From the sequence record NC_047754.1: a DNA stretch of 64,000 bases. One strand, written 5' to 3'. Below are positions 16,103 through 62,996 of this stretch, piece by piece. Source of the DNA: Escherichia phage phiAPCEc03. A model generated the notes under the pieces. It saw nothing but the letters and a program-made list of their open reading frames with translations, was not told the DNA's origin and did no database searches. Each line of letters begins with the position of its first letter. The first letter of the stretch is position 1. The translations under genes were made by a program, and so were the position numbers.

Positions 16103-16525
16103 ATGAGTACTGAAAATAGAGTTATAGACTTAGTAATAGATGAGAAAGTACCTTATGGTCTAATGATGCAATTCTTAGATGTTGATGATAGTACTTATCC
16201 CCCTACAAACACCCCTGTTAACTTAACAGGGTATTCTCTAAAGGGTACTATAAAGAATAGCCTTGATGAGAATGCGGAAACTTTGGCATCTTTTACTACT
16301 AAAATTATTGATGCTGCTCAAGGTGCTATAGCTATAAGTTTACCTGTAGAGGCGGTAGATAATATTGGTGAAAAAGCCACCAAAGAGAGAGATAAGTATA
16401 ACCCTCGCCAACGTTTTGCAGGATACTATGATATAATTATGACACGAGATGTCATAGGATCAGCTATTAGCTCTTTTCGTATAATGGAGGGTAAAGTATT
16501 TATCAGTGATGGGGTAACTAGATAA
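16103..16525 (+). CDS. Collar protein (T5 p132-like)
   Basis: 140 aa ORF between pb4-like gene and fibre gene; size and position match p132 as recalled. Confidence 0.55.
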
Positions 16526-18972
16526 TGGCAATAACTACTAAGATTATTGTACAACAAATATTAAATATTGATGATACTAAAGCTACTGCTAGTAAATTTC
16601 CTAGATACACAGTAACTCTTGGAAACTCTATTAGCTCTATTACTGCTATAGAGTTAGTATCCTCTATAGAGGCCGCTGCTAAATCTGCTGCGGCTGCAAA
16701 AGATTCTGAAATAGCTGCTAAAACCTCAGAACTTAATGCTAAGAACTCTGAACAGGAAGCTGCTATTTCTGCTGGAGCTTCAGAAGCTTCTGCTAATCAG
16801 TCTGCTACCTCTGCTACTCAGTCCGCAGCGTCAGCCAATAAGTCTGCAGAATCCGCTGCCGCAGCTAAAATATCCGAGACTAATGCGAAGACTAGTGAAA
16901 CTAATGCGAAGACTAGTGAAACTAACGCGAAGACTAGTGAAACTAATGCTGACGCATCAGCTGCTGCTGCAAAAATTAGTGAGACTAATGCAAAGGCAAG
17001 TGAGACTAATGCAGCTCAATCAGCTGCTGATGCAAAACTTAGCGAGGGTAACGCAAAGGTCAGTGAGACTAATGCAGCTCAATCAGCAGCTGATTCTAGC
17101 GGTTTTAGGAATGAGGCGGAAATATTTTCTGGGCAAGCTGCTGCATCGGCATCTGCGGCAAAAATCTCTGAAACCAATGCAAAAACCTCGGAAACAAAAG
17201 CTAAGGCTAGTGAAACTAATGCTGCGGGATCTGCAACTTCTGCTAGCCAATCTGTAGCTACTATTCAAGGACTTAAATCAGATGTCGAACAGTTAAAATC
17301 TGATACCCAGGACATTAAAAATAGTGCTATAACAGAGACAACAGCTTTAAAAGCGGATGTCGAACAGTTAAAATCTGATACCCAGGCCATTAAAAATAGC
17401 GCTATAACAGAGACAACAGCTTTAAAAGCGGATGTTGAGCAACTAAAAACAGATACACAAGGTATTAAGGATAGCGCGGTATCTGAGACAACAACTTTAA
17501 AAGATCAAGCTGCTGCTTCTGCTGCACAAGCAGGTAATAGTGCTGTTGAGGCCGGGCAACAAGCTAGCAATGCTGCTGGTAGTGCAAATAGCTCTAAAGT
17601 AGAAGCAGACCGTGCAAAGGCAGAAGCAGACCGTGCGGAAGTTGCAGCTAATAGGGATCCTGATCTTCAACCATTCCCTGACGTATGGATTCCATTTAAT
17701 GACTCGCTTGATATGCTCGCAGGTTATTCACCCGGCTATAAGAAAATAACAGTTGGTGAAGATGTTATTACAATGCCTTCTGATAAGGTTGTTAGTTTCA
17801 CGCGTGCGTCAAATGCAACATACATAAATAAGCATGGTGAATTTTGTATTGCTAATATCGATGAACCCAGATTTGAAAAGCAAGGACTCTTGATTGAAGG
17901 CCAGAGGACAAATCACATTACTTTCAGTAATGACCCCGCTTCACTAAATACAGATAAGCACCGTAGTGATGTTACTTATAATGTTGATAAGTATGGTTTT
18001 GCATATGCAACGGCTACAGCTAACGAAAATTCACATGGTGAGTACCCTTCATTATTTTATTGTAAAACCGTGAATGCAATCAACTGTCAGCAAAATGAAT
18101 ATGTTTCTTTATCTATACGAGTAAAGGCAAACTCGGATATCTATATCACCCCACAATTTTATTTAGTAGGTAAGGATGGAGGTCTTATTCTCGGTGCTAG
18201 ATCTTTCATAAGTTGCGAAACCGGCGAAGTTTCTTCTGTAGTAGAAGGGAGGGGGACTATAGCACATAGAATATATAGAGAAGACAACGGATGGTTGAAA
18301 GTTGAAGCTATGTGTAAATTTGTAGAACGTGGAGGTAGTTCTATTGGATCTGTAAATTATTGTCGGAATAATGATCAACCTTCGCAAGTTGGGGATACAA
18401 TATCATTTTGTACTCCGCAATTTGAAAAGGGTTTTTGTGCATCCTCCTTCATTATTACGGGAAGCACTCCTGCAACAAGGGCTCTGGATTATGTTACTAT
18501 ACCTGCAAGAAATAATTTCTCAGGGACGAATATTTCATTCCTTGCTGAGGTAAGTATCAACTGGAATAGCTTTCAATTAGATAATATATACCCAATGATA
18601 GTGGATAACAACCACTACTTCGTAAGAGGAAAAGCATTTGTTGCGGAATTTGACAGAACCTCCGTTACACCTTACACGTATGTGGTAACTGAGGATGGAT
18701 CAACTATTCTGTCCAGAGGTTATTCATTTGAAAAACAATTTTCTCCACATGTATTTGGTTTTATTCTCAGTGGCGATGTAGAGGTCACCTCGTTTGTTAA
18801 TGGTAATAGTGGTGAGACCTCACACGGTTCTACCTGGAAAGGAACGGACTCGGACGCACTAGTAGAAATAGGCGGTAGACTTTCAGATTCAACTAAATTG
18901 TATGGTCATATTCGTAACCTTAGAATATGGAATAGAGTATTAACAGATAGTCAAATGCGGGAGAAAGTTTAA
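16525..18972 (+). CDS. Tail fibre protein A (side fibre shaft; repeat-rich N-terminal half, jelly-roll-like C-terminal domain)
   Basis: 815 aa; heptad repeats SETNAKT x4 and 25-aa repeats DVEQLKSDTQxIKNSAITETTALKA x3; C-terminal ~350 aa Cys/Trp-containing domain ending ...LYGHIRNLRIWNRVLTDSQM (lectin/LamG-like by impression); start overlaps upstream stop. Confidence 0.7.
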   Translation: MAITTKIIVQQILNIDDTKATASKFPRYTVTLGNSISSITAIELVSSIEAAAKSAAAAKDSEIAAKTSELNAKNSEQEAAISAGASEASANQSATSATQSAASANKSAESAAAAKISETNAKTSETNAKTSETNAKTSETNADASAAAAKISETNAKASETNAAQSAADAKLSEGNAKVSETNAAQSAADSSGFRNEAEIFSGQAAASASAAKISETNAKTSETKAKASETNAAGSATSASQSVATIQGLKSDVEQLKSDTQDIKNSAITETTALKADVEQLKSDTQAIKNSAITETTALKADVEQLKTDTQGIKDSAVSETTTLKDQAAASAAQAGNSAVEAGQQASNAAGSANSSKVEADRAKAEADRAEVAANRDPDLQPFPDVWIPFNDSLDMLAGYSPGYKKITVGEDVITMPSDKVVSFTRASNATYINKHGEFCIANIDEPRFEKQGLLIEGQRTNHITFSNDPASLNTDKHRSDVTYNVDKYGFAYATATANENSHGEYPSLFYCKTVNAINCQQNEYVSLSIRVKANSDIYITPQFYLVGKDGGLILGARSFISCETGEVSSVVEGRGTIAHRIYREDNGWLKVEAMCKFVERGGSSIGSVNYCRNNDQPSQVGDTISFCTPQFEKGFCASSFIITGSTPATRALDYVTIPARNNFSGTNISFLAEVSINWNSFQLDNIYPMIVDNNHYFVRGKAFVAEFDRTSVTPYTYVVTEDGSTILSRGYSFEKQFSPHVFGFILSGDVEVTSFVNGNSGETSHGSTWKGTDSDALVEIGGRLSDSTKLYGHIRNLRIWNRVLTDSQMREKV
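16873..16950 (+). repeat. 21-nt tandem repeat (about 3.7 units) inside fibre gene
   Basis: Unit ACTAGTGAAACTAATGCGAAG repeated head-to-tail, encoding SETNAKT. Confidence 0.85.
17281..17505 (+). repeat. 75-nt tandem repeat x3 inside fibre gene
   Basis: Units at 17281-17355 and 17356-17430 differ at 2 positions; third unit (17431-17505) is diverged. Confidence 0.85.
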
Positions 18973-19236
18973 GTGAAAGATATTAATTTACAATTCAAGG
19001 ATGAAAAACATTATCTGGATGTTGTCGTTGATAGTGGGTGGCTTAAGACAAACTACGGTAACGTGTTTATAGATGAAATTGGTTTTATCCCTGTGGTAGA
19101 CGACCCTAAAAGTAAAACCCCTGCTATTATTGGTAAAGAAGGTTATTACATAAATATAAGGGTAGGAGATAATATAGACTTGTCAGACATCGAACAATTC
19201 ATTATTAAGAATCCCGATGTACGCAAATGGGCATAA
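18973..19236 (+). CDS. Hypothetical small protein between fibre genes (GTG start)
   Basis: 87 aa ORF filling the gap between the two fibre genes exactly; GTG start directly after upstream stop. Confidence 0.35.
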   Translation: MKDINLQFKDEKHYLDVVVDSGWLKTNYGNVFIDEIGFIPVVDDPKSKTPAIIGKEGYYINIRVGDNIDLSDIEQFIIKNPDVRKWA

Positions 19237-62921: not shown

Positions 62922-62996
62922 CGGGGTGTAGTCTAAGGGAGAGGCAGGAGTCTTCTAAATTCCTTTATGCAGGTTCGAATCCTGTCACCTCGGCCA
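62922..62996 (+). tRNA. tRNA-Arg (anticodon UCU), CCA encoded
   Basis: Hand-folded cloverleaf: acceptor CGGGGTG/CACCTCG (one G-U), U8, D-stem GTCT/AGGC, anticodon stem GGAGT/ATTCC with loop CT-TCT-AA, T-arm GCAGG-TTCGAAT-CCTGT, discriminator G then CCA. Confidence 0.7.

Follow-up and report, generated by a model that had tools for sequence, protein, structure and literature searches.

The gene for the lateral tail fibre protein LtfA of the T5-like Escherichia phage phiAPCEc03 carries coding tandem duplications in the segment that encodes its helical shaft. These duplications are probably altered by repeat-mediated gain and loss, a reading to which we assign a probability of roughly 0.78. The repeats occur as units of 21, 63 and 75 nucleotides (7, 21 and 25 residues), arranged head-to-tail and in frame within one open reading frame (ORF, 16525-18972) of the window, the 64,000-nucleotide stretch of phage DNA analysed here. 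Comparison with related genomes supports a coding tandem repeat whose copy number varies between lineages.

A lateral tail fibre gene with in-frame repeats

By homology and gene order, the repeat-bearing ORF is an LtfA-type lateral tail fibre gene of a T5-like phage (Tequintavirus). Its product is identical to AKO61493.1 of phiAPCEc03 in an exact-sequence look-up, and the ORF matches the tail protein family phrog_1419 (E 8e-227). The N-terminal part is matched by DT57C LtfA (PDB 8hqz_d; aa 1-212, E 8.1e-34, phmmer) and by the 1396-aa profile phrog_24369 (aa 3-192, E 3.5e-47). Within the pb3-pb4-ltfC-ltf tail-tip cluster, whose gene order is the same in relatives, the gene follows immediately after ltfC/p132; the full context is pb3, pb4, LtfC, LtfA, an 87-aa ORF and LtfB (Table 1). 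The 87-aa ORF also occurs in ESCO40, FFH1, AKFV33, SelmaRatti and others, and the LtfB-like protein ends in an intramolecular chaperone (Pfam PF13884 Peptidase_S74, E 8.9e-12). Towards its own C-terminus, LtfA matches PF13385 Laminin_G_3 (E 2e-6; 28.5 bits against a cut-off of 27.6), and this domain is likely, from its sequence, to be the receptor-binding head.

Table 1. Features of the LtfA locus, in coordinates of the window
Feature	Coordinates	Strand	Basis or remark
ORF 5' of ltfC, 949 aa	11190-14039		
ORF 5' of ltfC, 690 aa	14024-16096		
LtfC/p132 collar protein gene	16103-16525	+	Pfam PF23926 LtfC, E 3.7e-15; relatives annotate collar protein
ltfA-type lateral (L-shaped) tail fibre gene, 815 aa	16525-18972	+	ORF call
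Predicted long alpha-helix 1, aa 41-193, proximal shaft	16645-17103	+	AlphaFold2 monomer model
Heptad block 1, aa 116-190 (75 aa)	16870-17094	+	11 heptad rows
21-nt tandem array, TSETNAK heptads	16879-16949	+	Tandem Repeats Finder: 3.4 copies, 96% matches, score 135
63-nt (21-aa) tandem array	16914-17094	+	Tandem Repeats Finder: 2.9 copies, 84% matches
Predicted helix break, aa 194-207, SSGFRNEAEIFSGQ	17104-17145	+	AlphaFold2
Predicted long alpha-helix 2, aa 208-375, distal shaft	17146-17649	+	AlphaFold2 monomer model
Heptad block 2 (AKISETNAKTSETKAKASETNA)	17158-17223	+	Repeat search
75-nt tandem array, three 25-aa units	17275-17499	+	Copies 1 and 2 near-identical, copy 3 diverged
C-terminal concanavalin-A-like lectin/glucanase domain, LtfA aa 655-810	18487-18954	+	Pfam PF13385 Laminin_G_3
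87-aa ORF between both fibre genes	18973-19236	+	phrog_1361, E 2e-26
Second, LtfB-like fibre gene, 580 aa	19247-20989	+	phrog_6921, E 5e-259

A first-pass annotation of this DNA had described a 21-nt unit in about 3.7 copies and a 75-nt unit in three, both in frame within the fibre gene. Tandem Repeats Finder recovers both, the shorter array at a slightly lower count (Table 1) and the longer at 17281-17503 (3.0 copies, 87% matches, score 313). In codon register, the 75-nt copies found by repeat search occupy 17275-17349, 17350-17424 and 17425-17499, and they encode the 25-aa unit K[SA]DVEQLKSDTQxIKNSAITETTAL. Relative to copy 1, copy 2 is 95% and copy 3 is 73% identical. The earlier statement that the first two copies differ at only two positions is right in the Tandem Repeats Finder register from 17281 (2/75); in codon register the difference is 4/75. 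That annotation did not include the 63-nt array, the second heptad block or, at 16968-17013, a weaker array of 21-nt period. An overlapping ORF in another plus-strand frame (16736-17257) was rejected as a leucine-rich read-through of the repeat, an artefact. Since every unit is a multiple of 3 nt, a change in copy number cannot switch the reading frame, and an on/off phase-variable contingency repeat was rejected.

Repeat identity beyond chance and beyond the protein

The repeat signal is far beyond chance. When the fibre gene is shifted against itself by 21 nt, its best 40-nt stretch is 97.5% identical; in 300 codon-shuffled genes, the highest value over shifts and stretches averaged 58.8% and never exceeded 72.5%. 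A stricter control permuted synonymous codons 5000 times, thereby holding the protein constant. Copies 1 and 2 of the 75-nt unit match at 71/75 nt, against 55.8 +/- 2.9 after permutation, and none of the 5000 permutations reached 71. The 21-nt block is identical at 40/42 nt at shift 21 (permuted 32.3 +/- 2.4; 2/5000 reach 40), and the 63-nt units at 16969-17031 and 17032-17094 match at 55/63 nt (44.7 +/- 2.8; 2/5000). Thus, in all three units DNA identity exceeds what the protein requires, indicating recent duplication or homogenisation. The third 75-nt copy behaves differently: it matches copy 1 at 55/75 nt, with no clear excess over the protein-imposed expectation in the same 5000 permutations, of which 224 and 724 attain its observed identity to copies 1 and 2, respectively.

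A predicted helical shaft

All repeats fall within the two helices predicted by AlphaFold2 for the LtfA monomer. Helix 1 has a pLDDT of about 78-91 across aa 51-180, and its predicted start at residue 41, from a monomer prediction only, matches T40 of DT57C LtfA, where cryo-EM shows the start of a helix that forms a three-helix bundle (PMC10713586). The break between the helices has a pLDDT below 50 and no helix across aa 196-207, and its motif is kept in relatives; it is a candidate hinge of the bent fibre. The calculated lengths of the two helices are 22.7 + 24.9 nm. In transmission electron micrographs, phiAPCEc03 bears three fibres that are bent, measure 53.0 +/- 2.1 nm and are globular at their distal ends (PMC4900583).

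The first-pass annotation had called the repeats SETNAKT heptads and 25-aa coiled-coil segments. The encoded units are as it described; the coiled-coil reading rests on cryo-EM homology to DT57C and the AlphaFold helix prediction. Heptad block 1 has Ser at position 2 in 11/11 rows and Ala at position 6 in 10/10, with 4/3 spacing, and its Kyte-Doolittle power at period 3.5 is weak (1.5; aa 116-190), without a classical hydrophobic core. Hydropathy Fourier analysis therefore does not support a canonical hydrophobic coiled coil in the heptads, and a heptad core, if present, would be Ser/Ala. The 25-aa array has a hydropathy power of 41.3 at 3.57, but the 25-residue repeat itself gives rise to several harmonics, of which this is one, and the peak is thereby confounded. 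By homology, the shaft helices would continue the trimeric bundle of DT57C LtfA, and a trimeric coiled-coil geometry may be expected for the shaft.

A model for shaft growth and shrinkage can be built on this architecture. In it, the fibre would be fixed to the LtfC collar through the N-terminal 40 residues of LtfA, and the two long helices (residues 41-375) would presumably trimerise to give a thin rod about 48 nm long that leads to the lectin-like head. Shaft segments would be added or removed when homologous recombination misaligns the copies or replication slips between them, and because the units are whole codons, such gain or loss keeps the reading frame. The calculated length steps are about 1.0, 3.1 and 3.7 nm for the 21-, 63- and 75-nt units. 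Gene conversion may hold some of the copies near-identical. Of the two routes, both unequal crossover and slippage would suit the repeats, and shaft length may in turn affect adsorption or host range.

Shaft length and copy number among relatives

Among 21 distinct genomes, the shaft between two conserved anchor motifs takes eight different lengths (12, 174, 259, 265, 272, 283, 290 and 319 aa). The 25-aa unit is present three times in the phiAPCEc03 window and in seven relatives, twice in at least nine, once in P0001 and not at all in SelmaRatti. The two-copy state is found in IrisVonRoten, mar004NP2, L6jm, EC148 and ABTNLsp4, which were isolated independently and are mutually diverged. P0001 came from a word-indexed search of proteins that took the N-terminal 345 aa as query, in which the 8000 candidates with the most shared words were scored and most matches were shorter than 600 aa; among these, the motif family is widespread and low-complexity Ala/Ser/Thr-rich fibre proteins dominate.

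Indels relative to the phiAPCEc03 window are mostly 21, 42, 63 or 75 nt. For example, heptad block 2 has 21- or 42-nt insertions (at about 17169-17224) in IrisVonRoten, L6jm, EC148, OSYSP, MET_P1 and L029, and S.Ent 1-35-3 is one heptad short. AKFV33 is 31 aa short, OSYSP and MET_P1 are one 108-nt unit apart (97% identity), and in SelmaRatti an in-frame loss has removed 834 nt between runs of GCTGCT alanine codons. Paired +21/-21 indels in the global alignments were not counted as real compensating changes, since slippage of the alignment within diverged heptads could produce them. Other lineages have near-perfect arrays of their own: 63 nt at 100% in phC11, 21 nt x 4.1 at 98% in Lindwurm and 42 nt at 95% in T5_ev219. 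The middle 75-nt copy is a mosaic of copies 1 and 3 in at least four different forms among the three-copy genomes, a pattern suggesting that unequal crossover or gene conversion has happened repeatedly.

Other features speak of inheritance. The phiAPCEc03 copy numbers are common to its closest relatives ESCO40, I14, NBEco002, FFH1 and PNJ1902, and the 21-nt array was thus inherited rather than newly arisen. The 75-nt copies group mostly by position across genomes (positional orthologues in eight), so that the triplication is older than these isolates. A 290-aa shaft recurs in 8/21 genomes and heptad block 1 measures exactly 75 aa in 12/14, so that either changes are rare or stabilising selection acts on length.

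These comparisons bear out the proposal of the first-pass annotation that the repeats could vary fibre length between isolates. The cross-relative count it had suggested gives zero to three 25-aa units and heptads gained and lost. Copy number is not invariant and divergence is not equal, as the 71/75 and 55/75 matches of copies 2 and 3 to copy 1 illustrate. Its view of the repeats as substrates for slippage or unequal recombination is likewise supported between lineages, by the length steps, the unequal divergence and the mosaics.

Alternative readings of the repeats

The repeats could instead be relics of old duplications, kept for a periodic shaft and stable now, with length differences reflecting rare ancient events or module swapping. 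The positional orthology of the three 75-nt copies, the common shaft and block lengths and the merely protein-imposed similarity of copy 3 all fit such a history. However, synonymous sites agree far more closely between copies 1 and 2, and among the 21-nt units, than the protein would demand, the near-perfect arrays differ by lineage (periods 21, 42, 63, 108 and 129 nt), the middle copy exists in several mosaics, and a repeat was gained in the laboratory in DT571/2 LtfA. We consider a static shaft unlikely on this balance. Were the repeats to act in DNA or RNA, for instance as arrayed binding sites, as a regulatory structure or in phase-variation switching, the protein periodicity would be incidental; such a role has nothing positive in its favour, was raised only by the synonymous-site conservation between copies, and is scarcely credible. 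Unit periods and sequences vary by lineage while the helical protein pattern is retained, and in T5 pb1 diverged DNA encodes the same KTSETNA motif. Across the repeats, the minus strand holds no ORF of at least 80 aa.

Short-read collapse or mis-joining could also counterfeit copy-number differences where the true number is uniform, and parts of the data set do bear its marks. The records of phC11, phC17, phA11 and PH204 end inside the region and the S.Ent 1-35-3 contig stops there; I14 has a frame-breaking 28-nt partial-unit insertion, SP15 and WP85 are frameshifted too, and P0127 is a short-read (Logan) assembly with an upstream frameshift. Nonetheless, the unit arrangement is reproduced base for base in the independently sequenced ESCO40, NBEco002, FFH1 and PNJ1902, the two-copy state is common to independently isolated, diverged genomes, and the differences in SelmaRatti, AKFV33 and OSYSP are clean and in frame. 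The arrays are also short (71 and about 150 nt at high identity) relative to common read lengths. An assembly artefact is thus a very improbable source of the pattern.

A bolder version of repeat-mediated gain and loss would make the shaft a tunable length dial, in which unequal crossover within the 21-, 63- and 75-nt arrays generates length variants within each lysate at contingency-locus-like rates and the thickness of O-antigen or capsule selects among them. We regard this as doubtful. If it held, the selected length would be the one that best places the LtfA head and the LtfB branch, and the recurring 290- and 272-aa shafts, reached via different unit combinations, would be host-specific optima.

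Comparison with known fibres

The closest parallels are DT57C and DT571/2, whose LtfA also follows LtfC and has a homologous N-terminal anchor, with aa 1-100 highly similar (PMC4728585; Ayala et al. 2023, PMC10713586). Like phiAPCEc03, DT57C has two fibre genes, LtfA and LtfB, a long helix from about residue 40 (predicted in phiAPCEc03) and in-frame tandem repeats in LtfA; its LtfB attaches to the virion through LtfA, giving a branched two-protein fibre. However, DT57C LtfA is 1076 aa long, lacks the SETNAK and 25-aa arrays, and carries its own repeat, a 19-aa (57-nt) motif, at aa 478-542, beyond the compared shaft region. Its C-terminus is an S74 chaperone, whereas phiAPCEc03 LtfA has a Laminin_G_3-type end without S74, and the 87-aa ORF between LtfA and the S74-bearing second fibre gene sets phiAPCEc03 apart from DT57C. 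In the laboratory mutant DT571/2-ABF, a 19-aa tandem motif of LtfA was extended by one copy (Golomidova et al. 2016, PMC4728585); this gain, in a repeat other than those of phiAPCEc03, is the sole experimental precedent. T5 pb1 (Ltf) shares the N-terminal anchor and has a helical region at about aa 40-205 with AAKTSETNA several times, but it is a single 1396-aa fibre without the 25-aa array, and the DNA of its motif copies has diverged (best tandem-repeat match 21 nt x 3.7 at 61%).

Fibres built of repeated segments are found well beyond the T5-like phages. The T4-type fibritin (gpwac), reportedly described by Letarov et al. in 2005 as a segmented coiled coil whose segment number varies between phages, is a trimeric helical fibre that evolves in length by segment gain and loss, as the LtfA shaft may do; the protein is unrelated to LtfA and forms neck whiskers with another role. 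In the adenovirus fibre shaft and in T4 gp37 adhesin duplications, unit number differs between strains and alters length or host range. These are a triple beta-spiral and a beta-helix, respectively, which differ in fold from LtfA and are unrelated in sequence.

Implications for T5-like phages

Length variation by fibre repeats is already known, and the laboratory gain in DT571/2 LtfA has been in print since 2016; the LtfA shaft repeats thus reveal no new kind of biology. A literature search on repeat or copy-number variation in fibre length returned nothing on the subject, as did one on SelmaRatti/Bas34. For engineering and comparing T5-like phages, the arrays mark where the lateral fibre can lengthen or shorten unbroken, by a calculated ~1 nm per heptad and 3.7 nm per 25-mer. 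They also flag a region in which breaks and frameshifts are common when these phages are assembled from short reads. SelmaRatti shows that an isolate propagated on K-12 can lose nearly the whole rod. Finally, the natural series of zero, one, two and three units could be used to relate shaft length to adsorption on O-antigen-bearing hosts.

Gene neighbourhood and family

Judged by its sequence, the region is a stretch of coding tandem repeats within the helical shaft of LtfA, the lateral tail fibre of T5-like phages; as related phages diverged, its units were gained, lost and exchanged. It sits in a T5-like tail-tip cluster, with a 949-aa pb3-like ORF, a 690-aa pb4-like ORF, a 140-aa LtfC/p132 collar protein (Pfam PF23926) and the 815-aa fibre in that order, followed by an 87-aa ORF and a second fibre of 580 aa that has a Peptidase_S74 chaperone. 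Megablast matched 89 phage records, nearly all Tequintavirus, the closest being ESCO40 (93.5% across the full gene), and the window's replication module is ∼95% identical to that of T5. The fibre protein equals AKO61493.1 of Escherichia phage phiAPCEc03, residue for residue. Its N-terminal 212 residues match DT57C LtfA (PDB 8hqz chain d, E 8e-34). In the DT57C cryo-EM structure, the chain ahead of T40 is threaded into the LtfC collar, and a long helix from T40 enters a radially outward three-helix bundle (PMC10713586). Gene position and N-terminal homology place the protein in the T5-like LtfA/pb1 family, and the helix prediction is consistent with this. By homology with DT57C, the window fibre would also form a trimeric bundle.

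phiAPCEc03 is a human-gut isolate with a genome of 103,737 bp. The 87-aa ORF corresponds to phrog_1361, without a Pfam match, is conserved in every examined relative with two fibre genes and may act as an adaptor or assembly factor. The tRNA region that T5-like genomes typically have probably begins near the window end, at a single tRNA-Arg.

Repeat arrays and their age

Tandem Repeats Finder confirmed the 21-nt and 75-nt units that the first-pass annotation had placed in 16873-17505 at ∼3.7 and 3 copies. That the first two 75-nt copies differ at only two positions is true in the register from 17281; in codon register there are four differences. Every array is in frame within the one fibre ORF, as had been claimed for the 21-nt and 75-nt units. 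The 63-nt period and the second heptad block were absent from that annotation. Self-identity at shift 21 reaches 97.5% over 40 nt, against a maximum of 72.5% among 300 codon-shuffled genes.

Features of the fibre gene and its surroundings (window positions)
Feature	Position	Description
Lateral fibre gene	16525-18972 (+)	815 aa
SelmaRatti deletion junction	~16680 and ~17509	in GCTGCT alanine-codon runs
173-aa ORF	16736-17257 (+, other frame)	leucine-rich, overlaps repeats
KTSETNA-like heptad motif	16807-16962	aa 95-146; Ala/Ser/Thr/Glu/Asn/Lys
21-nt tandem array	16879-16949	3.4 copies, 96% matches
63-nt (21-aa) period	16914-17094	2.9 copies, 84%
Predicted helix break	17104-17145	aa 194-207, SSGFRNEAEIFSGQ
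Second heptad block	17158-17223	
75-nt tandem array	17281-17503	3.0 copies, 87% matches
75-nt copy 1 (codon register)	17275-17349	
75-nt copy 2	17350-17424	95% identity to copy 1
75-nt copy 3	17425-17499	73% identity to copy 1
End of similarity, four relatives	~17586-17592	just past QAGNSAVEAGQQASNAA motif
End of similarity, T5_ev219 and EC100	~17832	gene position 1308
87-aa ORF	18973-19236	between the two fibre genes
tRNA-Arg	62922-62996 (+)	anticodon TCT

Identity between copies was compared with a null obtained by permuting, 5000 times, the synonymous codons that encode the same amino acid in the gene. The repeats proved unequally diverged: by these results copy 3 is old, and some copies are young or have been homogenised.

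Nucleotide identity between repeat copies and the synonymous-codon null
Comparison	Identical	Null (mean ± sd)	Reached by
75-nt copies 1 vs 2	71/75	55.8 ± 2.9	0/5000
21-nt block at shift 21	40/42	32.3 ± 2.4	2/5000
63-nt units	55/63	44.7 ± 2.8	2/5000
75-nt copies 2 vs 3	58/75	52.8 ± 2.7	224/5000
75-nt copies 1 vs 3	55/75	51.5 ± 2.8	724/5000

The 173-aa ORF is a by-product of stop-free repetitive sequence; P0127, a frameshifted metagenomic protein, starts in its frame.

Position of the repeats in the shaft

A single-sequence AlphaFold2 model (mean pLDDT 72.5, about 78-91 over most of both helices) has residues 1-40 disordered, helices at 41-193 and 208-375 separated by a break, and a beta-rich region beginning thereafter. 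The 21- and 63-nt arrays code for aa 116-190 in helix 1, and the 75-nt array for aa 251-325 in helix 2. Calculated helix spans are 22.7 and 24.9 nm (0.1485 nm per residue), and a lectin-like head (Laminin_G_3) lies at aa 655-810. In its original description, phiAPCEc03 has three bent fibres that measure 53.0 ± 2.1 nm and carry globular structures distally (PMC4900583), which is consistent with two modelled rods, a hinge and the lectin-like head. The predicted break may correspond to the kink that makes the fibre ‘L-shaped’ or bent. Its GFR[ND]xAE motif is kept in all relatives and is also present in DT57C LtfA, ∼70 residues nearer the N-terminus.

Across the 11 heptad rows that make up aa 116-190, Ser always occupies position 2 and Ala position 6, the 4/3 spacing of core positions. 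A hydropathy period of 3.5 is only weak there, and a classical hydrophobic coiled coil is therefore not demonstrated for these residues. The N-terminal search returned at least 1050 proteins at E <= 1e-10; the heptad motif is thus widespread and confounds homology searches. It was found also in unrelated fibre-like proteins, for example a depolymerase chain (PDB 7vyv, residues 121-172).

Shaft length and copy number among relatives

Loci were retrieved from GenBank phage records (22) and IMG/VR (54), and the shaft was measured from the SSI[ED]A to the A[GA]NSAxEAGxQA motif in 21 distinct genomes with an intact reading frame in between. It is 290 aa long in eight, the window among them, 272 aa in five, and 283 and 265 aa in two each; single genomes have 259 (AKFV33), 319 (OSYSP), 174 (the IMG/VR contig of locus L030) and 12 aa (SelmaRatti). 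Copy number likewise varies among relatives. The 25-aa unit occurs three times in the window, ESCO40, NBEco002, FFH1, AKFV33, T5_ev219, EC100 and PNJ1902, twice in phC11, ABTNLsp4, IrisVonRoten, mar004NP2, L6jm, EC148, the IMG/VR contig of locus L025 and others, and once in the metagenomic protein P0001; SelmaRatti lacks it entirely.

In pairwise DNA alignments, indels relative to the window are overwhelmingly of 21, 42, 63 or 75 nt and fall within the arrays. Compared with the window, S.Ent 1-35-3 is one TSETNAK heptad short and AKFV33 lacks 30 and 63 nt. OSYSP carries one 108-nt unit (97% identity) more than its close relative MET_P1. Other lineages carry near-perfect arrays that differ in place and period from those of the window: 63 nt in phC11 (100%), 42 nt in T5_ev219 (95%), 21 nt x 4.1 in Lindwurm (98%), which also has a 129-nt period, and 57 nt x 2.4 in a DT57C-like locus (100%). 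The window's copy numbers are common to its nearest relatives, and heptad block 1 has a length of exactly 75 aa in 12 of 14 genomes. Because these copy numbers, the 75-aa block and the 290-aa shaft recur, either change is infrequent over such a timescale or stabilising selection acts on length.

The extreme case is SelmaRatti (Bas34), whose LtfA has 537 aa (locus L003, 3001-4614) and lacks 834 nt in frame, ∼aa 52-329, nearly the whole helical shaft. Its isolation host was K-12, on which lateral fibres are dispensable; fibre-less mutants accumulate on C600 (Golomidova et al., PMC4728585). The large deletion may reflect relaxed selection.

Similarity to PNJ1902, ABTNLsp4, OSYSP and MET_P1 ends abruptly just beyond the shaft, and that to T5_ev219 and EC100 somewhat further on; past these breakpoints the relatives have different distal modules. 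The conserved shaft end looks like a module-swap junction.

Exchange between copies and assembly error

In eight three-copy genomes the 75-nt copies cluster mostly by position, so the triplication predates these isolates. Copy 2 varies among genomes when scored at sites where copies 1 and 3 of the same genome differ. In PNJ1902 it is copy-3-like at position 4 alone; it switches between positions 6 and 12 in the window and T5_ev219 and between 27 and 33 in EC100, passes from copy-3-like to copy-1-like and back in NBEco002, FFH1 and AKFV33, and is entirely copy-3-like in S.Ent 1-35-3. Mosaics of this kind would be left by unequal crossover or by gene conversion with differing breakpoints, and they imply several independent events. 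Adjacent heptads also co-vary in synonymous state within lineages, with AGC in both middle heptads of NBEco002 and AGT in those of the window and ESCO40. P0127 aligns with FFH1 over 677 residues at 99% identity and has exactly one 25-aa unit fewer, with a copy-1/copy-2 fusion; its source is a short-read assembly that is frameshifted upstream, and it was hence given little weight.

Assemblers have difficulty with these repeats, and some of the reported variants may therefore be errors. The deposited ltfA is frameshifted within the repeat region in I14 (L002), SP15 (L007) and WP85 (L004), and for phC11, phC17, phA11, PH204 and S.Ent 1-35-3 the record or contig begins or stops within it. These are probably repeat-caused assembly problems; the frameshifted records might conceivably be real pseudogenes. 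I14, filed under Felixounavirus though T5-like, has a 28-nt partial-unit insertion at the equivalent of 17354. Assembly error does not account for the whole pattern, because the two-copy state is common to mutually diverged genomes from independent isolations, and four independent genomes reproduce the arrangement of the window.

Relation to known fibres

T4-type fibritin is a helical phage fibre in which segments have been gained and lost. Work on it is cited in the DT57C cryo-EM paper (PMC10713586). For LtfA, change mediated by repeats is already on record: a 19-aa tandem motif acquired one extra copy in the laboratory mutant DT571/2-ABF, and ltfA-ltfB fusions arose via deletions between repeated sequences (PMC4728585). 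The T5 fibre protein pb1 has the same AAKTSETNA motif as the window fibre, but its DNA copies have diverged. Neither the SETNAK and 25-mer arrays of the window's clade nor their copy-number series was found described in the literature searched. The kind of variation is already known; the suggestion that the repeats are substrates for length change between isolates is supported at the between-lineage level, where units are gained, lost and exchanged.
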